NCBI GenBank assembly: GCA_963844415.1
Contig: CAWJOA010000005.1
Location: 412,876 to 476,875, forward strand
DNA: 64,000 bases
Direction of reading: 5' to 3'
Source of the DNA: an uncultured Chloroflexia bacterium
Lineage (GTDB): Bacteria > Chloroflexota > Limnocylindria > QHBO01
In this document: piece after piece, positions 1,789-57,490 of the stretch
Layout of the letters: every line of letters starts with the position of its first letter
Position numbering within the stretch: the first letter of the stretch is position 1
Notes under the pieces: generated by a model
Database searches by the model: none
Told to the model about the DNA's origin: nothing
What the model saw: the letters and a program-made list of their open reading frames with translations, nothing else
Translations under genes and position numbers: made by a program

Positions 1789-1822
1789 CCGATCGAGTCT
1801 AGCGTTCGGTATGCTGCGCGCC

Positions 1823-2815
1823 ATGCCTGCCACGCCCAGCCCCGGGCAGGCCCGGGCCGGCCATCTTCTCATCATCGGCGGGGCCGAGGACAAGCTCCGC
1901 CAGCGCCAGATCCTGGCGCGCTTCGTGTCGCTGGCCGGCGGCGCCGAAGCTCGGGTCGTCGTCATCTCGACGGCCTCCTCGCTGGGCGACGAGGCGACCG
2001 ACCTGTACCTGTCGCTGTTCCGGCAGATGGGGATCGCCGACGTGCGCGGCATGCGCCCGCTCGTGCGCGACGACGCCAACGACAAGCGGCTCGTCGCCCC
2101 GCTCGACGACGCGACCGGGATCTTCATGACCGGCGGCAACCAGCTGCGCCTGTCGAGCGTGATCGCCGGCACGTTCCTCGGCAGGACGCTCGTCGAGCGG
2201 CACAAGCACGGCGCGATCGTGGCCGGCACGAGCGCCGGCGCATCGGCCATCGCCAGCCACATGGTGGCGTTCGGGACAAGCGGCGCCACGCCGAAGCAGC
2301 GCATGACCCAGATGAGCGCGGGGCTCGGCCTGCTGCCCGGCGTGCTCATCGACCAGCACTTCGAACAGCGCAACCGATTCGGGCGCCTGCTCGCGCTCGT
2401 TGCCCAGTCGCCGGCACTGCTCGGCATCGGCATCGACGAGGACACCGCGGCGCTCGTGAGCCCGAAGGGGATCGCCGAGGTGCTCGGCAAGGGCGCGATC
2501 ACCATCCTCGACCCGGCAAACATCCGCACCGATGCCTACGAGGTCAAGCGGCATCGGCCGATCATGGTCTCCGGCGTCATCCTCCACTCGCTGCCATCGG
2601 GCTATCGGTTCGACCTGCGCAAGCGCAAGCTGATGGCGCCGCTGCGCCCGGTGAGCGCCACCGATCGCGAGCTCGCCAGCCTCCAGGCCGCAACGATCGC
2701 CACCCGCCGGCTCATCCGCACGATCGCGGCCGAGGGCGCCGACGACACCGCGCCCGAGCGCGCCCGCCGCCGCGCCGTGCGCGCGCGCCGCGTCGAGGAG
2801 GAGGCCAGCGAATGA
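1823..2815 (+). CDS. cphB: Cyanophycinase (S51 peptidase)
   Basis: Track ORF 1811..2815. Motifs HLLIIGGAED, FMTGGNQLRL, AGTSAGASA, LIDQHFEQRNRFGRL. ATG 1823 is preferred (TATGCT-N7-ATG); ATG 1811 lies inside that -10 box. The stop overlaps the cphA start (ATGA at 2812-2815). Confidence 0.9.
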   Translation: MPATPSPGQARAGHLLIIGGAEDKLRQRQILARFVSLAGGAEARVVVISTASSLGDEATDLYLSLFRQMGIADVRGMRPLVRDDANDKRLVAPLDDATGIFMTGGNQLRLSSVIAGTFLGRTLVERHKHGAIVAGTSAGASAIASHMVAFGTSGATPKQRMTQMSAGLGLLPGVLIDQHFEQRNRFGRLLALVAQSPALLGIGIDEDTAALVSPKGIAEVLGKGAITILDPANIRTDAYEVKRHRPIMVSGVILHSLPSGYRFDLRKRKLMAPLRPVSATDRELASLQAATIATRRLIRTIAAEGADDTAPERARRRAVRARRVEEEASE

Positions 2816-5631
2816 CGGCCACGAACAACCGCGCCAACGCTCGTCGGGAGCGAACGGCCGCCGGCGCGCCGCCCGGATCGGTCCCGAAGGCGGAGCTGAC
2901 GATCGTCGAGACCCGGGTCTTCCGCGGCCCGAACTACTGGAACTACGACCCGGCCATCAAGCTCGTCGTCGACCTCGGCATCCTCGAGCACTACCCGACG
3001 AACACGATCCCCGGCTTCACCATCGCGTTGCTCGAGATGCTGCCCGCCGTCGGCCAACACACCTGCGGGACGGGGCGCGTTGGCGGCTTCTCCGACCGGC
3101 TGCGCGACGGCACCTGGGTCGGGCACGTCGCCGAGCACATCGCCCTCCAGCTCCAGCGCGAGGCCGGCACCGAGGTCGGCCGCGGCAAGACGCGCGGCAC
3201 CGGTGAGCCGGGGCAGTACCACGTGGTCTACTCGTACGCCGAGGAGGGCGTCGGCGTCGCCGCCGGCAAGCTCGCCGTGCGCCTCGTCAACCACCTCGTC
3301 GAGGCCGAGCCGGACTTCGACTTCGGCGCCGAGCTCGAGCGCCTCATCCTGCTGGCGGAGCGCCTCGCGTTCGGGCCCTCGACGCAGGCCATCCTCGACG
3401 AGGCCGCGCTGCGCGACATCCCGTCGATCCGCCTCAACGACCAGTCGCTCGTCCAGCTCGGCCACGGCATCCACCAGAAGCGCATCCGCGCCACGATGAC
3501 CTCGCTGACCGGGTCGCTCGGCGTCGACATCGCCGGGGACAAGAAGCTCACGAACAAGCTGCTGGCGGCGACCGGCGTGCCGGTTCCGCGCGCGGAGACC
3601 GTCCGCAACGCCGATGCGGCGGTGGCCGCCGCGACGCGCATCGGCTTCCCGGTGGCGATGAAGCCCCTCGACGGCAACCACGGGCGCGGCGTGATGCTCA
3701 ACCTCGCCGACGAGGAGGCCGTTCGCGCCGCCTACGCGGTCGCGCGCCGGGAGAGCCGCGGCGGCACGGTGGTCGTCGAGACGTTCCTCACCGGCAACGA
3801 CTATCGGTGCCTCGTCATCGGTGGCACGCTGGTCGCGGTGGCGCAGCGGGTGCCGGCCCACGTGGAGGGCGACGGGGAGCATTCCCTCGCGGAGCTCGTC
3901 GAGATCACGAACACCGACCCGCGCCGCGGCATCGGTCACGAGAAGGTCCTGACGCGCATCAAGGTCGACGACGAGGCGATCGCCTACGCCCGCGAGCAGG
4001 GCTTCGAGTTGAGCGACGTGCCGCCGCGCTCGCAGCGGGTCTACCTCAAGCGCACCGGCAACATGAGCACCGGCGGCATCAGCATCGATCGCACCGAGGA
4101 GGCGCATCCCGACAACGTCGAGCTGGCCGAGCTTGCGGCGCAGGTCGTGGGGCTCGACATCGCCGGGATCGACCTCATCTGCCCCGACGTCGGGCTGCCG
4201 GTCCGCGAGACGGGCGGCGGGATCGTCGAGGTCAACGCCGCGCCGGGCTTCCGGATGCACACGCACCCGACCGAGGGCGAGGCGCAGTACGTCGCCAAGC
4301 CGGTGATCGACATGCTCTTCCCGCCGGGAGCGCCGTCGCGCATTCCGATCGTCGCGGTGACCGGCTCGAACGGCAAGACGACGACCGCCCGGATGATCAG
4401 TCACATCATGAAGGGCATGGGCCGCAAGGTCGGCCTCACGTCGACCGATGGCATCTACGTCGACGGCCGGATCGTGCGCAAGGCGGACGCATCGGGCCCG
4501 AAGTCCGCGTCGATGGTGCTCCAGAACCCGACCGTCGACCTGGCCGTCTTCGAGGTCGCCCGCGGCGGCATCCTGCGCGAGGGCCTCGGCTACCACCGCA
4601 ACGACGTCGCCGTCGTGATCAACGTGACCGGAGACCACCTGGGGCTGGGCGGCATCCACTCGATCCGCCAGCTGGCCGAGGTCAAGCGCGTCGTCGTCGA
4701 GGCCGTTCCCCGCGACGGCGTGGCCGTGCTCAACGCAGATGACCCCCTTGTGGCTGCGATGGCGCGCCACTGCTCCGGCTCGGTCATCTACTTCAGCACC
4801 GATCCTGAGCACGAGCGCCTGAAGTTCCAGGCCGCCCGCGGGCGCCGCGCGGTGACGCTGGAGCAGGGTCGCAACGGCGAGATGATCGTCCTGCGCCAGG
4901 GACGCAAGTCGATGTCGCTGGTGTGGACCCACCTGATTCCCGCGACGTTCGAGGGCCGCGCGCGGATGAACGTCCAGAACGCGCTGGCCGCCACCGGCGC
5001 AGCGTGGGCCGCCGGGGCCCATCTCCACGACATCCGCCAGGGCCTGCGCACGTTCACGACGTCGTACTACATGGCGCCGGGCCGGATGAACATGTTCGAG
5101 CTCGACGGCTACCGCGTCGTCGTCGACTACGCCCACAACCCGCCAGCGCTGCGGGCCGTCGGCGACTTCGTCGAGCGCCTGACCGTGCCGTCGCCGGGTG
5201 GCGCCCGCGCCCCGGTCACCGGCCGCCGGATCGGCGTGGTGGCCACGGCCGGCGACCGCCGCGACGAGGACATCCGCGAGATCGGTCGCGTGGCGGCGGG
5301 CATCTTCGACGAGATCATCATCCGCGAGGACGAGAACAACCGCGGCCGGCCGCGCGGCAACACCGCGGAGCTGATCGCGGAGGGAATCGAGTCAGCCGGC
5401 GCCGAGCGTCGCGCCACCTCGGTCTCAACGTCGCTCGTCGAGCTGGAGGCCACCCGCGAGGCACTCGACCGCGCCACCGATGGCGACGTCGTGGTCGTCT
5501 GCGTCGATCACGCCAACCAGGTCTGGAAGGAGCTCCAGCGCCGCCAGCACGGCGGAGCCAGCGAGACCGATGGACTCCGCGCCGTCGTCGGCATCCCGGA
5601 CGCCGACGACGAGGTCGACATCGAGGTTTAG
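2812..5631 (+). CDS. cphA: Cyanophycin synthetase, 939 aa (N domain, ATP-grasp G domain, Mur-ligase-like M domain)
   Basis: C-terminal 940 codons of track ORF 211..5631. Motifs IVETRVFRGPNYWNYDPAIKLVVDLG, GDKKLTNKLLAATGVPVP, VTGSNGKTTTARMI, ARGGILREGLGY, DYAHNPPAL, ATAGDRRDED. The frame is intact. Confidence 0.95.
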   Translation: MTATNNRANARRERTAAGAPPGSVPKAELTIVETRVFRGPNYWNYDPAIKLVVDLGILEHYPTNTIPGFTIALLEMLPAVGQHTCGTGRVGGFSDRLRDGTWVGHVAEHIALQLQREAGTEVGRGKTRGTGEPGQYHVVYSYAEEGVGVAAGKLAVRLVNHLVEAEPDFDFGAELERLILLAERLAFGPSTQAILDEAALRDIPSIRLNDQSLVQLGHGIHQKRIRATMTSLTGSLGVDIAGDKKLTNKLLAATGVPVPRAETVRNADAAVAAATRIGFPVAMKPLDGNHGRGVMLNLADEEAVRAAYAVARRESRGGTVVVETFLTGNDYRCLVIGGTLVAVAQRVPAHVEGDGEHSLAELVEITNTDPRRGIGHEKVLTRIKVDDEAIAYAREQGFELSDVPPRSQRVYLKRTGNMSTGGISIDRTEEAHPDNVELAELAAQVVGLDIAGIDLICPDVGLPVRETGGGIVEVNAAPGFRMHTHPTEGEAQYVAKPVIDMLFPPGAPSRIPIVAVTGSNGKTTTARMISHIMKGMGRKVGLTSTDGIYVDGRIVRKADASGPKSASMVLQNPTVDLAVFEVARGGILREGLGYHRNDVAVVINVTGDHLGLGGIHSIRQLAEVKRVVVEAVPRDGVAVLNADDPLVAAMARHCSGSVIYFSTDPEHERLKFQAARGRRAVTLEQGRNGEMIVLRQGRKSMSLVWTHLIPATFEGRARMNVQNALAATGAAWAAGAHLHDIRQGLRTFTTSYYMAPGRMNMFELDGYRVVVDYAHNPPALRAVGDFVERLTVPSPGGARAPVTGRRIGVVATAGDRRDEDIREIGRVAAGIFDEIIIREDENNRGRPRGNTAELIAEGIESAGAERRATSVSTSLVELEATREALDRATDGDVVVVCVDHANQVWKELQRRQHGGASETDGLRAVVGIPDADDEVDIEV

Positions 5632-5632
5632 A

Positions 5633-7237
5633 TCACCGGTCCTGCGTGAGACGCCGCAATCGATCGAAGTCCACCGGGCGGAAGCCCTCGCCCTCGAGCC
5701 ACCCGAAGAGCTCGGCGCGCTCGACATGGGCCATGACCGCGCAGACGTCGCCGCGATCGGCCCGCGCGATGAGCGCCTGGAGCGACGAGAGCTCCGTCGG
5801 GAAGTCCTCGATCGCGCTGGCGTAGCCGCCCTCTCGCGCACCCGAGCGAAGGATCTCGTTCATCTCGTCGAGGTCGCGGCCGCGCAGGTAGTGGCGCTTC
5901 TCGCAGATGACGAGGTCGTCGGCGGCTGCGGCGAGGACGCCCAGGCGGTGGAGGATCTCATCGGTGCGGTCGCCGGCGGTGCCATAGGCGAGCCGCACCT
6001 TGTGCTGACCGGCCACGGCACGCGCAACGTCCATCAACCCGGCCAGGCCGGCCTCGTTGTGGGCGAAGTCGACGATGGCGAACACGCCGTCGCGCTCGAA
6101 CAGGTTCAGGCGGCCGGGGTTGGCCGAGCGATCGACGCCGAAGGACCGCAGGCCGGCCTTGATCTGGCGCGTCGTCAGCCCGAGCGCATCGCAGGCCGCG
6201 GCCGCAGCCAGCGCGTTGGCGATGTTGTGACGCGACAGCCCGCCCACCGTGACCGGCAGCTCGGCCGCCTCGAGCAGCCGGCGCGGCCGCTTCGTCGCCC
6301 CGTGCAGCACGATCCAGCCGTCCTCGAGGGTCGCCGCCCGGCCGCGATGCCGGAGCGCGCGACGGACCTCATCGGTCCGGCCCTCCATGCTGAAAGCGAA
6401 GACGCGGGCGCGGGTCGCGCGGCGCATGCCCCAGGCACGCGGATCGTCGGCGTTCAGCACCGCCCAGCCGTCGCGTTTCGTGATGCGCACGACGGTCGAC
6501 TTCACGTCGGCGAGCTCGTCGACGGTGTCGATCCCCTGCAGGCCGAGGTGGTCGGCGCTGACATTGGTGACGACGCTCACGTCGTTTGACGCGTAGCCGA
6601 TGCCACGCAGCAGGATGCCGCCCCGCGCTGTTTCGAGGATCGCGACGTCCAGGCCATGCTCCGAGAGGATCCGCTCAGCCCCGCCGAAGCCGGTCCAGTC
6701 CCCCGCCTCGACCAGCTCGCCGCGCACGTAGATCCCGTCCGAGTTCGTCATTCCCACGTCCATGCCCGCCGTGGCGCAGACGTGGGCGACCAGCCGGGTC
6801 GTCGTGCTCTTCCCGTTCGTGCCGGTGATCGCCACGATCGGGATGCGCGGCTTCGGCAGGTGCGCCAGCTGCCCCAGCGCCATCGCCCGCAGCCCACCGA
6901 GCTCACGCTTGTAGGTCGAGCGCCCGAGGGCAATGCGCGTGGCCGAGGCGCCGATCGCCTGCGAGATCGTCCGCCGTCGCCACGGAAAGGCGATCGCCGA
7001 ACGCAGGTCGTCGACCGAATCGCGCGTCGCCAGTCTCGGCTCCGGCAAGCCCAGCTCCGTTGACAGCCGACGCACCGCTCGCCCGGCCGCCTCGGTCACG
7101 CGCGCCGCGTCGCCCGGCTGCACCCCGGCGAACTCGAGCTTCACCGCGGGCCGCGAGAAGAATCGGTTCGGCCCATCCAGCACCCGGAGCTCCACGAGCT
7201 CCACGTCGCGCCCGCGGCGTCCGACCTTCGGCGGCAT
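5633..7237 (-). CDS. CphA paralogue without ATP-grasp domain (CphA-type N-terminal segment fused directly to Mur-ligase M/C domains), 534 aa
   Basis: Track ORF 5633..7444(-), start ATG 7237. VELVELRVLDGPNRFFSRPAVKLEF resembles the CphA N-terminus. It is followed directly by ITGTNGKSTT and blocks close to the CphA M domain: ARGGILLRGIGYASNDVSVVTNVSADHLGLQGI, GRLNLFERDGVFAIVDFAHNEAGL, GTAGDRTDE. TATACT-N7-ATG precedes the start. Its stop is 1 nt from the cphA stop. Confidence 0.8.
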   Translation of the reverse strand: MPPKVGRRGRDVELVELRVLDGPNRFFSRPAVKLEFAGVQPGDAARVTEAAGRAVRRLSTELGLPEPRLATRDSVDDLRSAIAFPWRRRTISQAIGASATRIALGRSTYKRELGGLRAMALGQLAHLPKPRIPIVAITGTNGKSTTTRLVAHVCATAGMDVGMTNSDGIYVRGELVEAGDWTGFGGAERILSEHGLDVAILETARGGILLRGIGYASNDVSVVTNVSADHLGLQGIDTVDELADVKSTVVRITKRDGWAVLNADDPRAWGMRRATRARVFAFSMEGRTDEVRRALRHRGRAATLEDGWIVLHGATKRPRRLLEAAELPVTVGGLSRHNIANALAAAAACDALGLTTRQIKAGLRSFGVDRSANPGRLNLFERDGVFAIVDFAHNEAGLAGLMDVARAVAGQHKVRLAYGTAGDRTDEILHRLGVLAAAADDLVICEKRHYLRGRDLDEMNEILRSGAREGGYASAIEDFPTELSSLQALIARADRGDVCAVMAHVERAELFGWLEGEGFRPVDFDRLRRLTQDR

Positions 7238-7259
7238 GCGCGTGAGTATATTGACGGCC
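7238..7259. promoter_or_regulatory. 22-bp divergent intergenic region with overlapping -10 boxes (leaderless mRNAs predicted in both directions)
   Basis: On the + strand, TATATT (7247-7252) is followed by 7 nt and ATG 7260. On the - strand, TATACT (complement of 7245-7250) is followed by 7 nt and ATG 7237. This is the only AT-rich patch in the region. Confidence 0.4.
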
Positions 7260-8427
7260 ATGCCCGATCCCGCCGCGCTGTCGCGCATCGTCGAGTCGCG
7301 CCTCCCCCGCTTCCTGGCCGAGCTCGAGCAGCTCGTGAACATCGACTGCGGCTCGTACACGCCCGACGGCGTCAACCGCGTCGCCGACTTCGTGACCGAT
7401 GCGCTCCAGTCCCTCGGCGCGACCGTCGAGCGCACGCCGCACACAGCCGGCCGCTGACCAGCCGCAGCTCGGCGACCTCGTCGTCGGCCGGTTGGATGGC
7501 GACGGCCCGCGCCTGCTGCTCATCGGTCACATGGACACCGTCTTCGACCCGGGCACGGCCGCGCTGCGGCCGTATCGGTCCGATGGTGGGAAGGCGTTCG
7601 GACCCGGCGTGACCGATATGAAGGCCGGGCTCCTGGCTGGCCTCCACGCCGTCGGTGCGTTGGCCGACGCCGGCGAGCGGCCGGCGATCACGTTCGTCGC
7701 CAACCCGGACGAGGAGATCGGCTCGCCGTTCAGCACCCCGGTCATCCGTTCGTTGGCGCCGGAGCACGACGCCGTGCTCGTCCTCGAGTGCGCGCGGGCG
7801 AACGGCGACATCGTGTCCGCCCGCAAGGGCATCGCCGACTACCACGTGACGATCACCGGCCGCGCCGCGCACGCCGGCGTCGAGCCGGAGAAGGGCCGAT
7901 CGGCGATCCTCGAGGCCGCGCACCAGGTCGTTGCGTTGCATGCGCTCAACGGCCGATGGCCCACCGTCACCGTCAACGCCGGCGTCATCCACGGCGGCAC
8001 ACGGCCGAACGTCGTGCCCGAGCGCTGCTCGCTCGAGGTGGATCTCCGCGCGGCGACCGTCGACGCCTTCGACGCGGCGGCGGCCGAGATCGAGCGGCTC
8101 GCGTCGGCGCCAACCGTGCCCGATGTGTCCGTATCGCTGACGCGGACCGCGGGCCATCCGCCGATGGAGAAGACTGATGCTTCCGCCCGGCTGGTGGCGC
8201 TGGCGGTGGGGATCGCCGGCGAGCTCGGCTTCGAGCTCCGCGATGCCGCCACCGGCGGAGCCTCCGATGCCAACACCACCGCGGCACTGGGCATCCCCAC
8301 GTTGGACGGCCTGGGACCGGTCGGCGGCGACGATCACTCCGTCGACGAATGGCTGGACCTCGACAGCGTCGTGCCGCGGACGGCGCTGCTGGCAGGGCTC
8401 ATGTCGCGCATCGGTCTAGCGGTCTAG
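7260..8427 (+). CDS. M20 family metallopeptidase (carboxypeptidase G2 / deacylase-like), frame broken once
   Basis: The N-terminus MPDPAALSRIVESRLPRFLAELEQLVNIDCGSYTPDGVNRVADFV...VERTPHTAG (frame of ATG 7260) ends at TGA 7455-7457. The rest (QLGDLVVGRLDGDGPRLLLIGHMDTVF...GGASDAN) is track ORF 7399..8427 in the +1 frame. This implies a one-nt-scale indel near 7446-7457. Confidence 0.75.
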
Positions 8428-8857: not shown

Positions 8858-9301
8858 GTGACCGATGAGCTTCGTCACCGCACGCCCCTGCAGGTTCGCT
8901 TTCGCGACACCGATGCGTTCGGGCATGTCAACAACGCCGTCTTCTTCAGCTACATCGAGCTGGCCCGGATCCGGTACTTCCTCGACGTCCTCCGGCCGGA
9001 CGAGCCGTTCGAGCGGATGCCGCTGATCCTGGCACGTGTCGAGCTGGACTTCCGCTCGCCGATCATGTTCGGCGAGGAGGTCGAGGTGGAGACGCGGGTG
9101 GACCGCATCGGTCGATCCAGCATCGCGATGAGCCATCGGATGACGGCTGACGGCCGTCTCGTTGGCGAGTCGGAGTCGGTGCTCGTGACCTATGACTACG
9201 CGAACGCCAGGCCGATGCCCGTCCCCGACGCCTGGCGCGCGAAGTTCGCCGCCTACGAGGGTCGCGCCCTCGAGGCCGAACCAGCGGTTGCGGCCGGCTG
9301 A
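8858..9301 (+). CDS. Acyl-CoA thioesterase, hotdog fold (4HBT/YbgC-like)
   Basis: Track ORF. VRFRDTDAFGHVNNAVFFSYIELARIRYF is the typical 4HBT catalytic-Asp context. Confidence 0.8.
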   Translation: MTDELRHRTPLQVRFRDTDAFGHVNNAVFFSYIELARIRYFLDVLRPDEPFERMPLILARVELDFRSPIMFGEEVEVETRVDRIGRSSIAMSHRMTADGRLVGESESVLVTYDYANARPMPVPDAWRAKFAAYEGRALEAEPAVAAG

Positions 9302-10719
9302 TGGCGGATCCGCAGCGGTTCGACCTGCTCATCCTCGGCGGCGGCATGAGCTACGTCGGCGCCATCCGCGCCGCGCAGCTGGGCCTCAACGTGGGGCTGG
9401 TCGAGCGCGACAAGCTCGGCGGCACGTGCCTGAACCGTGGGTGCATCCCGTCGAAGGCGCTCCTGGAGACGGCCGACCTGCTGCACCGTGTGCAGGAGCA
9501 GGGCGGCGAGTTCGGCCTCTCCGGCCACGAAGGCATCGGTCTCGACTACGGGGCACTGGGCACGCGCCGCGACGCGGTGATCGACAAGCACGTGTCCGGC
9601 GTCGAGTTCCTGTTGAAGAAGAACAAGGTGACCGTGCTGCGCGGGAACGGGACGCTGACGGGTCCGACCAGCGTGCAGGTGGGCGGCGGGGAGTCCGGCG
9701 ACCTGGACGCGAGCGCAGACAACCTCATCCTCGCCACCGGCAGCGCGCCCCGCAGCCTCCCCGGCCTCGACGTCGACGGCCGCCTGATCATCACCAGTGA
9801 CGAGGCGCTGACGCGCGGCGACGTCCCCGGTCGCGTGGCGATCGTCGGCGCCGGCGCGATCGGTGTCGAGTGGGCGTCCATGTACCGCGACTTCGGGTCC
9901 GAGGTCACGCTCATCGAGTTCGCCGACCGAATCGTGCCGCTCGAGGACCCCGAGGTCGGCAAGGAGCTCGCGCGCGTCTTCCGCAAGCGCGGCATCACCT
10001 CCCACGTCGCGTCGACGATCGACACCGAAACCCTGAAGAAGGGCGAGGACGAGGTCAGCTTCCAGATCGCGACGAAGGACGGCTCGAAGCGGACCGACCT
10101 GACCGTCGACGTCATCCTCGTGGCCGTCGGCCGCCGCCCGCTCACCGAGAACATCGGCCTCGAGGCCATCGCCGGCGTCGAGGTCGACCGCGGCTACGTC
10201 ACGGTCGACGAGTTCATGCGGACCGGGGCGCCGAACCTGTACGCCATCGGCGACATCGTCCCCGGCTTCGCGCTGGCCCATGTCGCCAGCCACGAGGCGG
10301 TCGTCGCCGTCGAGCACATGACCGGCCACGACCCGGAGCCCGTGCGCATGGACCTCATGCCGCGGGTGACGTTCTGCCGGCCGCAGATCGCATCGGTCGG
10401 CTGGACCGAGGAGGAGGCGCAGGCGCAGGGTCGCGAGACCAAGTCCGGCTCGTTCCCGTTCCGGGCGCTCGGCAAGGCAACGATCGTCGGCGAGGTCGAC
10501 GGCTTCGCGAAGTTCGTGACCGATGCCGGCAGCGGCGAGCTGCTCGGCGCGCACATCATCGGCCCGCACGCGGGCGACCTCCTGGCGGAGCCGACGCTGG
10601 CCCGCCTGGTGCAGGGAACCGCAGCGGAGATCGCGATGAGCGTCCACGCTCATCCCACCCTGACCGAGGTCCTCGCCGAGGCCGCCCTCGCGGTCGACGG
10701 CGCGGCCATCCACGTGTAG
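9301..10719 (+). CDS. lpdA: Dihydrolipoyl dehydrogenase (E3)
   Basis: Track ORF. Motifs FDLLILGGGMSYVGAIRAAQLG and GGTCLNRGCIPSKALL (redox disulfide). The start overlaps the upstream stop (TGATG). Confidence 0.9.
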   Translation: MADPQRFDLLILGGGMSYVGAIRAAQLGLNVGLVERDKLGGTCLNRGCIPSKALLETADLLHRVQEQGGEFGLSGHEGIGLDYGALGTRRDAVIDKHVSGVEFLLKKNKVTVLRGNGTLTGPTSVQVGGGESGDLDASADNLILATGSAPRSLPGLDVDGRLIITSDEALTRGDVPGRVAIVGAGAIGVEWASMYRDFGSEVTLIEFADRIVPLEDPEVGKELARVFRKRGITSHVASTIDTETLKKGEDEVSFQIATKDGSKRTDLTVDVILVAVGRRPLTENIGLEAIAGVEVDRGYVTVDEFMRTGAPNLYAIGDIVPGFALAHVASHEAVVAVEHMTGHDPEPVRMDLMPRVTFCRPQIASVGWTEEEAQAQGRETKSGSFPFRALGKATIVGEVDGFAKFVTDAGSGELLGAHIIGPHAGDLLAEPTLARLVQGTAAEIAMSVHAHPTLTEVLAEAALAVDGAAIHV

Positions 10720-10737
10720 CAAGGAGGGACGGCAGCC

Positions 10738-11784
10738 GTGGCAAAGACCGATACGCGCCGCCGGCACGCCGAGCTCGGCCTCAGCGACGAGGACGTGCTC
10801 GGGATGTACCGCGCCATGCTGCTCGCCCGCGGCGTGGACGAGCGGATGTGGCTGATGCAGCGTGCCGGCAAGATCGCCTTCATCATCAGCGGCCAGGGGC
10901 ACGAGGGCGCGCAGGTCGCGACCGCCTGGCCGATGCGGCGCGGCACCGACTGGATGGCGCCGTACTACCGCTCGATCGCCTCGGCGATGACCTTCGGAAT
11001 GAGCGCCGAGGACATCATCACCGCCCACCTCGCCAAGGCCGACGACGTGTCATCCGGTGGACGGCAGATGCCCGGCCACTACGGCGGCGCGCCGTACAAC
11101 ATCGTCTCGCTGTCGTCGCCGGTCGGGACGCAGGTCCTCCATGCGGTCGGGATCGCGATGGGCGCCTGGGTCCGCGGCGACAGCGTCGTGGCCCAGACCT
11201 CCTTCGGCGAGGGCACCGCGAACCAGGGCGAGGTCCACGAGGCGATGAACTTCGCCGGCGTGCACAACCTGCCGGTCATCTTCATCTGCGAGAACAACGG
11301 CTACGCCATCTCCGTTCCGCTCGATCGCCAGGTGGCCGGTGGCTCGGTGGCGGCACGCGCGGAGGGCTACGGGATGCCGGGCGTCGTCGTCGACGGCGGG
11401 GACGTCCTCGCCTGCTACGCCGCCGCGAAGAAGGCCCACGACCGCGCGCTGCGCGGCGACGGCCCGACGCTGATCGAGGCGCAGGTCGTACGGCTGACGT
11501 CGCATTCGTCGGACGACGACCAGCGCCGGTACCGCGACCCGGGCGAGGTCGAGGCGCTCAAGGAGCGCGACCCGATCCCGATGTTCGCCAACGAGCTGCG
11601 AGCCGCGCGCGTCCTGACCGACGAGATCGACGAGCGCCTGAAGGCCGAGGTCAAGGCCGAGGTCAACGAGGCCTCGAAGCGCGCGGAGGCGCGGCCCGAG
11701 CCATCCGCCGACGACGCCCACGAGCGCGTCTACGCCGAGCCGATCCCCGGCGGCGGCACGGCCGTTCCACTGGAGGGCCACTGA
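10738..11784 (+). CDS. 2-oxoacid dehydrogenase E1 alpha subunit (BCKDH/PDH heterotetrameric type, TPP-binding)
   Basis: Track ORF. Motifs GQGHEGAQVA and FGEGTANQGEVHEAMNFAGVHNLPVIFICENNGYAIS. Confidence 0.9.
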   Translation: MAKTDTRRRHAELGLSDEDVLGMYRAMLLARGVDERMWLMQRAGKIAFIISGQGHEGAQVATAWPMRRGTDWMAPYYRSIASAMTFGMSAEDIITAHLAKADDVSSGGRQMPGHYGGAPYNIVSLSSPVGTQVLHAVGIAMGAWVRGDSVVAQTSFGEGTANQGEVHEAMNFAGVHNLPVIFICENNGYAISVPLDRQVAGGSVAARAEGYGMPGVVVDGGDVLACYAAAKKAHDRALRGDGPTLIEAQVVRLTSHSSDDDQRRYRDPGEVEALKERDPIPMFANELRAARVLTDEIDERLKAEVKAEVNEASKRAEARPEPSADDAHERVYAEPIPGGGTAVPLEGH

Positions 11785-57413: not shown

Positions 57414-57490
57414 TGGCGCGCCCGGAGGGATTCGAACCCCCGACCTGCTGATCCGAAGTCAGCTGCTCTGATCCACTGAGCTACGGGCGC
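57414..57490 (-). tRNA. tRNA-Arg (anticodon TCG), CCA encoded
   Basis: GCGCCCG ta GCTC agtggatca GAGC a GCTGA ctTCGga TCAGC aggtc GGGGG ttcgaat CCCTC CGGGCGC g cca. All four stems pair. Confidence 0.9.

Follow-up and report, generated by a model that had tools for sequence, protein, structure and literature searches.

Background

Cyanophycin is a nitrogen-storage polymer, and its synthesis has been described as the work of a single enzyme: CphA1 or, for the recycling of dipeptides, CphA2, which polymerises beta-Asp-Arg. Full-length CphA1 combines an N domain, a G (ATP-grasp) domain and an M domain. A zinc peptidase motif of the N domain, Cx19HxxEH, has been defined and is carried by 83% of CphA1s (PMC9262961), and the ATP and Mg2+ ligands of TeCphA1 are also defined (PMC9427784). 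CphA2 is a reduced relative with a non-catalytic N domain, in which an active G domain has been kept and the M domain is truncated and inactive (PMC10273328).

Our literature search found no paper on a CphA paralogue lacking the G domain or on the function of such a protein. A bioinformatic survey of cyanophycin genes (PMC10206079) makes no mention of a gene of this kind, and the genome paper of Lysobacter capsici (PMC4742617) describes only a two-gene cphB-cphA cluster, leaving the gene unmentioned.

Here we describe such a paralogue, encoded in a 64,000-nt stretch of DNA from an uncultured Chloroflexia bacterium (contig CAWJOA010000005.1), the whole of which is referred to as the window. In its product, designated the N+M protein, a CphA-type N domain of reduced size is joined directly to a complete CphA-type M domain, without a G domain. 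The features of the locus are collected in Table 1.

Table 1. Features of the cyanophycin locus, in window coordinates
Feature	Position	Strand	Evidence or remark
cphB, cyanophycinase	1811..2815	+	TIGR02069 249 bits (cut-off 126.6)
cphA1, full cyanophycin synthetase 1 (N+G+M, 939 aa), convergent partner	2812..5631	+	TIGR02068 1149 bits (cut-off 850); Pfam Cyanophycin_syn, ATP-grasp and Mur_ligase_M/C
G+C-rich inverted repeat with 14-nt arms, inside the cphA1 3' end	5583..5611	.	on the minus-strand transcript, 22-50 nt 3' of the N+M stop
CDS, G-less CphA-like ligase (N+M protein), 534 aa	5633..7237	-	ORF, homologue lengths, TATACT-7 nt-ATG, GC3, dN/dS
C-terminal tail (aa 504-534), two predicted helices, conserved in close family	5636..5728	-	AF2 secondary structure; alignments
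Mlid, Mur_ligase_C (aa 371-503)	5729..6127	-	Pfam PF02875 E 1.8e-8; residue mapping, conservation
Mcore, Mur_ligase_M (aa 130-370)	6128..6850	-	Pfam PF08245 E 2.3e-21; mapping onto TeCphA1
P-loop GTNGKST (aa 139-145)	6803..6823	-	within Mcore
Reduced CphA-type N domain (aa ~10-119), beta-beta-alpha-beta-beta-alpha-alpha	6881..7210	-	hhalign, AF2, Foldseek
-10-like hexamer TATACT	7245..7250	-	7 nt upstream of ATG 7237
Divergent M20 metallopeptidase gene (CPG2-like), frameshift near 7445-7457	7260..8427	+	Pfam/NCBIfam; two reading frames

Results

The gene and its coding signal

The stop codon of the N+M gene (TGA, tca on the forward strand, 5633-5635) lies a single base (5632) from that of cphA1 (tag, 5629-5631), as originally reported, and the stop of cphB overlaps the start of cphA1 by 4 nt (ATGA, 2812-2815). 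Called mechanically, the N+M reading frame extends to position 7444, a GTG; most relatives, which are ~533 aa long, start at the ATG that lies here at 7237. In six loci, comprising the window and five relatives (L001-L005), the hexamer TATACT stands exactly 7 nt 5' of this ATG despite a G+C content of ~71%, and its position suggests that the mRNA is leaderless. The GC3 of the gene is 0.91, with cphA1 and cphB alike, and dN/dS against an 87%-identical orthologue is 0.19, the same value being obtained for the N part and the M part. The gene is thus under purifying selection. Full-length orthologues occur in several phyla among the matches listed, and this, together with the dN/dS value and the conserved catalytic residues, rules out a pseudogene or decaying duplicate of cphA1.

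Domain organization

Profile searches with Pfam agreed with the predicted domain content. The protein matches Mur_ligase_M (77.1 bits, gathering cut-off 24) and Mur_ligase_C (35.7 bits, cut-off 28.4) and carries the P-loop of the Mur ligase superfamily. The neighbouring CphA1 matches eight ATP-grasp families; none was matched, to E 10, by the N+M protein or 15 close relatives. Only ~25 residues separate the N-terminal fold from the P-loop, so that a G domain of ~325 aa cannot fit between them.

The N-terminal region was more demanding. The first 130 aa have no Pfam or NCBIfam match (in Pfam none even at E 10 across 16 relatives), and pairwise similarity to CphA1 is weak (E 0.003). Profile-profile comparison with CphA1 N domains by hhalign, however, gave a probability of 96.4% (E 1.2e-9) over residues 10-103, with a deletion of ~40 aa that spans the zinc-site segment. 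The AF2 model of residues 1-128 is confident (pLDDT 88.6), and the best 14 PDB matches to it in Foldseek are all chains of CphA1 or CphA2. The CphA-type N-terminal strand of the original prediction therefore reflects real homology to the CphA N domain despite the weak pairwise score. This domain contains a hairpin, RVLDGPNRFF, and an invariant WRRR motif (aa 86-89), and is without the Cx19HxxEH zinc site; in other N+M subclades the N domain is larger, at 160-200 aa. When whole chains were aligned to CphA1 with Foldseek, rmsd values were 11-23 A, too large for a reliable reading of how the N and M domains are placed relative to each other.

Compared with the CphA1 structures (PDB 7LG5, 7LGJ, 7LGQ, 7WAC), the N+M protein shares the N-domain fold with its RxLxGPN hairpin, the MurE-like Mcore and Mlid with corresponding P-loop, Mg2+ and ATP ligand sites (35-43% M-domain identity), and the gene neighbourhood. 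It differs in having an N domain ~40 aa shorter, without the peptidase site, and no G domain, hence no backbone elongation. CphA2 (PDB 7TA5, 8FXH), which is among the best N-domain fold matches, is reduced in the mirror-image sense: where CphA2 has kept its G domain, the N+M protein has a complete and apparently active M domain, including Mlid. The original prediction had set the two apart by the G domain kept in CphA2, and this contrast holds.

Family affinity and active site of the M domain

The M module aligns with the M domain of the neighbouring CphA1 at 40% identity over 381 columns (E 1e-65), and the best five PDB sequence matches, like the best fold matches, are all CphA1. Lack of specific affinity to CphA was one of two outcomes set beforehand as refuting the prediction, and it was not observed: against the cyanophycin synthetase model TIGR02068 the protein scores 384 bits, covering model positions 477-848 only and staying below the curated cut-off of 850. 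Scores against other NCBIfam models are MurE 107 (cut-off 373), FolC 59 (163), MurT 42 (800) and CfbE 31 (250), all below threshold. MurE, the diamino-acid ligase acting on UDP-MurNAc-L-Ala-D-Glu, forms the second-best group among structural and profile matches and has the same two-domain catalytic core, but carries a UDP-binding N-terminal domain where the N+M protein has a CphA N domain; the N+M gene also lies outside any cell-wall gene cluster.

Mapping onto TeCphA1 paired N141 with N497, K143 with K499, S144 with T500, S166 with T522, E202 with E558, H337 with F692, R376 with R731 and H393 with H748. Further residues noted were D229-H230, K246, N262 and N341 in Mcore, and D390, N394, D423-R424, R452 and R454 in Mlid. 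In 27 N+M orthologues all key residues are retained, barring N262G in four and D423N, within the GDR motif, in four gammaproteobacterial proteins. Between 24 CphA1 M domains and 64 N+M proteins, 44 positions are identical and at least 90% conserved, including D180, R205, D423-R424 and R452-R454. With its ATP and Mg2+ ligands present, the stand-alone M domain is apparently catalytically competent.

Systematic differences from CphA1 were confined to two positions: G186 corresponds to Ser in CphA1, and R211 to Glu, Ser or Ala. Position 186 is G in the 27 orthologues (A in 3) and S in 28 partner CphA1s (A in 3); position 211 is R (K in 2) in the former and E, S, A or G in the latter. Among the 64 clade members, G186 is found in 86% and R211 in 91%. 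These two residues could alter specificity. At no other position is a residue conserved in CphA1 exchanged for a chemically different conserved residue in the N+M proteins. An alternative-substrate role, as suggested in the original prediction, is accordingly not favoured by the active-site comparison.

A clade of G-less proteins

In a neighbour-joining tree of M domains, which is distance-based, unrooted, without an outgroup and poorly resolved within each half, 64 G-less proteins including that of the window fell on one side and all 24 CphA1s on the opposite side in 170 of 200 bootstraps; the subclade of the window's own protein was recovered in 200 of 200. Of 80 sampled G-less proteins, 11 match PF18921 (Cyanophycin_syn) and 8 match DUF4938 (PF16292). 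The architectures joining either family to a Mur ligase have the same layout as the N+M protein and no assigned function; their N-terminal regions share homology with that of the query, which is itself too divergent to match either model. NCBI names the N+M protein only "Mur ligase family protein", and JGI names N+M proteins of ~530-600 aa "cyanophycin synthetase". Because N+M proteins cannot build the backbone, cphA numbers in surveys relying on such names could come out too high.

Linkage to cphA1

Linkage to cph genes in other genomes was borne out: N+M adjoins or lies near cphA1 in all 24 informative loci retrieved via the N+M gene (17/17, 3/3 and 4/4), almost always with cphB too. The arrangement varies. 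N+M is convergent with cphA1 in Chloroflexota and Actinomycetota, and co-directional with it in Proteobacteria and Myxococcota, where the myxococcal loci have cphB, cphA1 and N+M in this order on one strand; 8 gammaproteobacterial loci found via cphA1 have the same order. Stop and start codons of the two genes abut or overlap in a Lysobacter and a Nannocystaceae genome (L048 and L085), and in relatives the two genes lie between 3 nt and about 8 kb apart. Overlap of convergent transcripts, as proposed for the window, is thus not a conserved feature of these loci. In Kribbella, the genes between N+M and cphA1 (an ECF sigma factor, a Dyp peroxidase and PCuAC) look unrelated.

In each of the 28 partner CphA1s examined, the M domain is intact and the N-domain peptidase motif (Cx19-21HxxEH) is present; the window's CphA1 carries it as Cx19HxxEH, read from the translation, and its orthologues do as well. 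The N+M gene is therefore not replacing a dead domain, and compensation for a partner's dead M domain or missing primer peptidase is ruled out. The M20 peptidase gene, whose orthologues are intact in L002, L003 and L005, is a neighbour only in the five closest, Limnocylindria-type loci (L001-L005) and was ruled out as a universal partner.

A scan for promoter and terminator consensus sequences found nothing near the gene ends, including no terminator-like site by the stops, so that overlap of the convergent N+M and cphA1 transcripts in the window is plausible. The inverted repeat inside the cphA1 3' end folds as RNA at -36.1 kcal/mol (z -1.9, marginally better than shuffled sequence and thus of weak significance) and has no U-tract.

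Discussion

On its domain content, the N+M protein could decorate side chains only. We consider it most likely, with a probability of roughly 60%, that it acts in trans, joining arginine or a close analogue to the beta-carboxyl groups of Asp in cyanophycin or its precursors. It would then amount to the arginine-adding half of cyanophycin synthetase as an enzyme in its own right, with a mechanism copied from the CphA1 M domain and a trimmed N domain whose conserved hairpin corresponds to one that packs on the M domain in CphA1. The enzyme would bind ATP and Mg2+ and phosphorylate a free beta-carboxylate, presented by a terminal Asp of a cyanophycin chain or of a short precursor; the alpha-amino group of L-arginine, or of a very similar amine, would then attack the acyl-phosphate. 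Since the N+M protein cannot extend the backbone, it would have to act in trans on material from the neighbouring CphA1. The result may be a higher ratio of side-chain-ligating to backbone-ligating sites, or the filling of bare Asp residues left by CphA1. The clade travels with cphA1 and cphB through Chloroflexota, Actinomycetota, Myxococcota and part of Gammaproteobacteria. We infer the substrates and the in-trans role from these observations on domains, catalytic residues, descent, linkage and selection.

A plain duplicate of the arginine-ligating activity looks redundant, because every partner CphA1 has an intact M domain, and this redundancy therefore argues for a difference in substrate, timing or assembly. 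If the difference lies in the substrate, the protein might place an amine other than arginine, such as Lys, Orn, citrulline or Glu, on Asp side chains and yield a mixed-side-chain cyanophycin. Such a specificity would explain why both enzymes are kept when the partner's M domain is predicted to work, and the family-specific G186 and R211 within otherwise invariant motifs, as well as the D423N exchange in the four gammaproteobacterial members, fit it. The rest of the core is nevertheless identical to that of CphA1, with no conserved chemical change beyond these two positions, and we regard this alternative as unlikely. Alternatively, the protein might make primers or dipeptides and so hasten primer-independent synthesis by CphA1, whose first steps are reported to be very slow in all CphA1s (PMC9262961); the cutting down of the N domain to ~110 aa in the query clade, with loss of the zinc-site segment, fits a lesser need to hold a long polymer. 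We doubt this too: N+M organisms should not lack primers, because all their partner CphA1s keep the primer-generating peptidase motif, and the N domains of other subclades are not so reduced.

The protein might also be a structural or regulatory subunit that binds CphA1 or the polymer. The abutting or overlapping codons in the Lysobacter and Nannocystaceae genomes hint at co-production, and in CphA1 tetramers Mcore contacts neighbouring G cores (PMC9427784). Conservation of the ATP/Mg and catalytic residues across phyla would be needless in a purely structural role, just as the dN/dS value and the full-length orthologues speak against a decaying partial duplicate, and either account is highly improbable; complex formation and catalysis are compatible and not mutually exclusive. 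Scarcely credible is an unrelated Mur ligase, acting in cell-wall (MurE or MurT), FolC or poly-gamma-glutamate reactions, that merely sits beside cphA1. Membership of the superfamily and the bare NCBI name would allow it, but the MurE, MurT, FolC and CfbE scores are 3- to 10-fold below the CphA score and far under their cut-offs, the N domain is CphA-type and not MurE-type, and the N+M gene stays linked to cphA1 under two different arrangements.

We also tentatively put forward, at less than even odds, a reading in which cyanophycin biosynthesis has a previously unrecognised third enzyme, the N+M protein, for a task that CphA1 cannot perform efficiently: production of the initial beta-Asp-Arg units or primers, filling or capping of Asp, or addition of a non-arginine side chain.

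Conclusions

An N+M protein that works in trans could offer a tool for polymer engineering, with which poly-Asp or cyanophycin could be decorated apart from backbone synthesis, the Arg:Asp ratio shifted or other side chains added. The presence beside cphA1 of a gene that is conserved and, by sequence, catalytically intact suggests an extra step or subunit in several large phyla. If the N+M protein is such a third enzyme, cyanophycin synthesis would be a two-enzyme process in Chloroflexota, Actinomycetota, Myxococcota and Xanthomonadales-like Gammaproteobacteria, and the polymer of these organisms could differ from that of the textbooks.

Gene content and start site of the G-less ligase gene

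The gene described here, designated N+M, encodes the N-terminal (N) and the Mur-ligase-like, Arg-attaching (M) domains of a cyanophycin synthetase without the ATP-grasp, backbone-elongating G domain, and lies beside a complete cphA1. The proteins of the window have their nearest relatives in 'Candidatus Limnocylindria' and other Chloroflexota. As originally predicted, the two genes converge with one base between their stops (cphA1 tag at 5629-5631; N+M tca, as read on the plus strand, at 5633-5635). The mechanical open reading frame of N+M reaches a GTG at 7444. We fixed the start at the ATG at 7237 because the hexamer TATACT stands exactly 7 nt 5' of it both in the window (~71% G+C) and in the five closest related loci (L001-L005), in DNA of similar composition (~71% G+C). 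This start gives 534 aa, most homologues having ~533 aa, and the spacing suggests that the N+M mRNA is leaderless. The 22-bp gap separating this ATG from the divergent ATG at 7260 contains two overlapping -10-like hexamers (7245-7252), minus-strand TATACT and plus-strand TATATT. Both stand exactly 7 nt before a start codon, suggesting leaderless transcripts running back to back. GC3 is 0.91, typical for genes of the window, and dN/dS against the 87%-identical L001 orthologue is 0.19 in the N-terminal and ligase parts alike; N+M is therefore a real gene under purifying selection.

Features of the cyanophycin locus and the RNA gene of the window
Feature	Position	Strand	Remarks
DnaJ-domain gene		-	Also present in syntenic locus L001
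cphB (cyanophycinase)	1811-2815	+	TIGR02069, 249 bits
cphA1	2812-5631	+	TIGR02068, 1149 bits; Cyanophycin_syn, ATP-grasp, Mur_ligase_M/C
N+M gene	5633-7237	-
M20 metallopeptidase gene	7260-8427	+	CPG2-like; divergent from N+M
tRNA-Arg (anticodon TCG)	57414-57490	-	No other RNA gene detected

The cphA1 start and cphB stop overlap by 4 nt (ATGA, 2812-2815), as they do in L001, which indicates that the translation of cyanophycinase and of synthetase is coupled. Since the M20 gene is part of the conserved block M20 / N+M / cphA1 / cphB, kept only in L001-L005, its product might be a cyanophycin dipeptidase. In the window an apparent single-base frameshift near 7445-7457 divides this gene between two reading frames, so that either the assembly is wrong there or the gene is a pseudogene; orthologues are intact in L002, L003 and L005, and the L001 copy also appears fragmented. 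The tRNA aside, there were no Rfam matches at the gathering threshold in the 64-kb window.

A CphA-type M domain without a G domain

Pfam finds Mur_ligase_M (aa 137-349) and Mur_ligase_C (aa 375-503) in the N+M protein and nothing else. No ATP-grasp family matches it, against eight in the neighbouring CphA1, and none was detected in 15 close relatives at E values up to 10. The best NCBIfam match is cyanophycin synthetase (384 bits), confined to model positions 477-848, the M domain alone, with far lower scores for MurE (107 bits), FolC (59) and MurT (42). Its identity with the M domain of the partner CphA1 is 40% (E 1e-65), and all five of its top PDB sequence matches are CphA1. Both the absence of the G domain and the CphA character of the ligase module hold as predicted. 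Aligned with the ATP/Mg2+ ligands described for TeCphA1 (N497, K499, T500, T522, E558, F692, R731 and H748; PMC9427784), are, in order, N141, K143, S144, S166, E202, H337, R376 and H393.

The N-terminus had been likened to the first strand of CphA, a weak pairwise match (E 0.003) in a region without any Pfam match. The homology is nonetheless real, because profile-profile comparison aligns the family N-termini with CphA1 N domains (96.4% probability, E 1.2e-9, residues 10-103), AlphaFold models residues 1-128 with confidence (pLDDT 88.6), and the 14 best Foldseek matches of this model among 350,542 PDB chains are all CphA1 or CphA2 (E 6.6e-5 to 1.2e-2, TM ~0.6). It is a reduced N domain: a ~40-residue deletion removes the segment with the Cys of the Cx19HxxEH zinc site defined in CphA1 (PMC9262961), and the HxxEH residues are gone from the aligned helix. 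An RVLDGPNRFF hairpin is retained, the counterpart of a hydrophobic loop that in SuCphA1 packs against the M domain (PMC9262961), and a WRRR motif (aa 86-89) is invariant in the family.

Linkage to cphA1

A full cphA1 was present in 17/17 loci with enough flanking sequence (GTDB matches listed via the N+M gene, plus L001; two further contigs that end at N+M were left out). In these, cphB nearly always follows cphA1, and N+M and cphA1 are convergent and 0.07-8 kb apart. They belong to Chloroflexota, including Thermomicrobiales, a MAG labelled Methylomirabilota, and Actinomycetota (Kribbella, Terrabacter, Propionibacteriaceae, Micrococcales). The convergent layout recurs in all three contexts of a Thermomicrobiales-type subclade (gaps 3-120 nt), and a Myxococcota-rich subclade, with N-termini starting SRRLTGPN, has (amidohydrolase)-cphB-cphA1-N+M on one strand in 4/4, the N+M start overlapping the cphA1 stop in L085. 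Linkage to cphA1, proposed from the single locus, is thus essentially invariant among loci found via the N+M gene. Starting from CphA1, we found N+M directly downstream of cphA1 in eight gammaproteobacterial loci (Lysobacter, Luteimonas, Steroidobacteraceae and others), directly adjoining in Lysobacter (cphA1 stop 11314, N+M start 11315); the cphA1 loci sampled from Bacteroidota, cyanobacteria, acidobacteria and alphaproteobacteria showed no second such gene within flanks of up to 10 kb per side.

Several individual loci deserve mention. L004 (DATJIJ010000162.1, labelled Candidatus Methylomirabilota) shares the M20 / N+M / cphA1 / cphB block of the Limnocylindria-type loci at 62% identity and could be a mis-binned Chloroflexota contig or a horizontal transfer. 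In the Myxococcota-type loci L085-L088 and in Lysobacter (L048) the amidohydrolase is IadA-like and the order is amidohydrolase - cphB - cphA1 - N+M; in L086-L088, genes for an ECF sigma factor and for a cupin-domain protein come next. For Lysobacter capsici, the genome paper reports a cphB-cphA cluster of two genes only (PMC4742617). A Bacteroidetes MAG (L060) has two full-length cphA1 genes, both with a G domain (4578-6722 and 9041-11128) and separated by a few kb, with cphB downstream, a duplication of another kind than the N+M / cphA1 pairing.

Overlap of the cphA1 and N+M transcripts in the window is plausible. No consensus terminator was found near the two stops, and the region after the cphA1 stop contains nothing notable. 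A G+C-rich inverted repeat within the last 50 nt of cphA1 (5583-5611, 14-nt arms, 93% complementary) could, tentatively, serve as a hairpin just past the stop in the convergent N+M transcript, although it has no U-tract and is only marginally better than shuffled sequence (z -1.9). The tight stop spacing is not kept in relatives.

A widespread G-less clade

Among the best 150 matches of a cluster search covering 1.84 billion representatives, many were G-less proteins of 500-650 aa with an N-terminal RxLxGPN hairpin and 117-260 aa before the P-loop. All 80 sampled carry Mur_ligase_M and Mur_ligase_C, while 11 match PF18921 (CphA N domain) and 8 match DUF4938. N-terminal regions of four N+M subclades are mutually homologous (95.9-99.5%) and related to the CphA1 N domain (72.8-97.5%). 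A distance-based neighbour-joining tree of 111 M domains, built without an outgroup and hence without polarity, separates 64 N+M proteins, including the query, from all 24 CphA1 M domains and 23 other sequences, among them fragments as well as true N+M proteins whose N domains are full (170/200 bootstraps); the query's own subclade was recovered in 200/200. The protein thus belongs to a widespread G-less clade. Four representatives (P0198, P0208, P0232 and P0257) are G-less yet have a CphA1-type N domain of full length, in which the Cys and His residues of the zinc site are kept, and they cluster with CphA1 M domains, outside the N+M clade; they may reflect independent, more recent G-domain losses, or gene-calling artefacts.

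Likely function

A total of 44 positions are at least 90% conserved both in CphA1 M domains and in the N+M clade (64 members) and have the same residue in the two groups, including D180, E202, R205, D229-H230, K246, N262, N341, R376, D390, H393-N394, D423-R424 and R452-R454. Only two differences are systematic: position 186 is Gly in N+M and Ser in CphA1, and position 211 is Arg in N+M and Glu, Ser or Ala in CphA1. The simplest reading of these sequences is that N+M would share the chemistry of the CphA1 M domain, using ATP to join arginine or a close analogue to an Asp beta-carboxylate, and, having no G domain, would work in trans on CphA1-made chains or precursors. Its substrate, product and physiological benefit are inferred here. 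That the cphA1 stop abuts or overlaps the N+M start in Proteobacteria and Myxococcota is consistent with joint production of the two proteins, possibly as a complex. Rival readings are that N+M attaches an alternative side chain, that it makes a dipeptide or primer, or that its role is structural.

Two further roles were ruled out on the evidence of the partner CphA1s, which in 28/28 cases keep all M-domain catalytic residues and the Cx19-21HxxEH N-domain motif: N+M neither replaces a dead partner M domain nor stands in for a primer-generating peptidase that the partner lacks.

Comparison with known systems and annotation

N+M falls outside the CphA1 definition, lacking the G domain and scoring 384 bits against a cut-off of 850, and curated cut-offs exclude it from MurE, MurT and FolC. 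In CphA2 the G domain is active and the M domain vestigial (PMC10273328); N+M, as anticipated, is distinct from it and is its reciprocal, with the M domain kept and the G domain absent. The architecture is already in databases, with PF18921 and DUF4938 covering parts of it, and full-text searches of the literature found no description or functional study of such a protein. NCBI names it 'Mur ligase family protein' and JGI, wrongly, 'cyanophycin synthetase'; G-less proteins of 520-600 aa are sometimes called 'UDP-N-acetylmuramyl tripeptide synthase' or 'folylpolyglutamate synthase' by JGI. Counts of cphA drawn from such names could be inflated. The N+M protein itself is real, conserved and testable.
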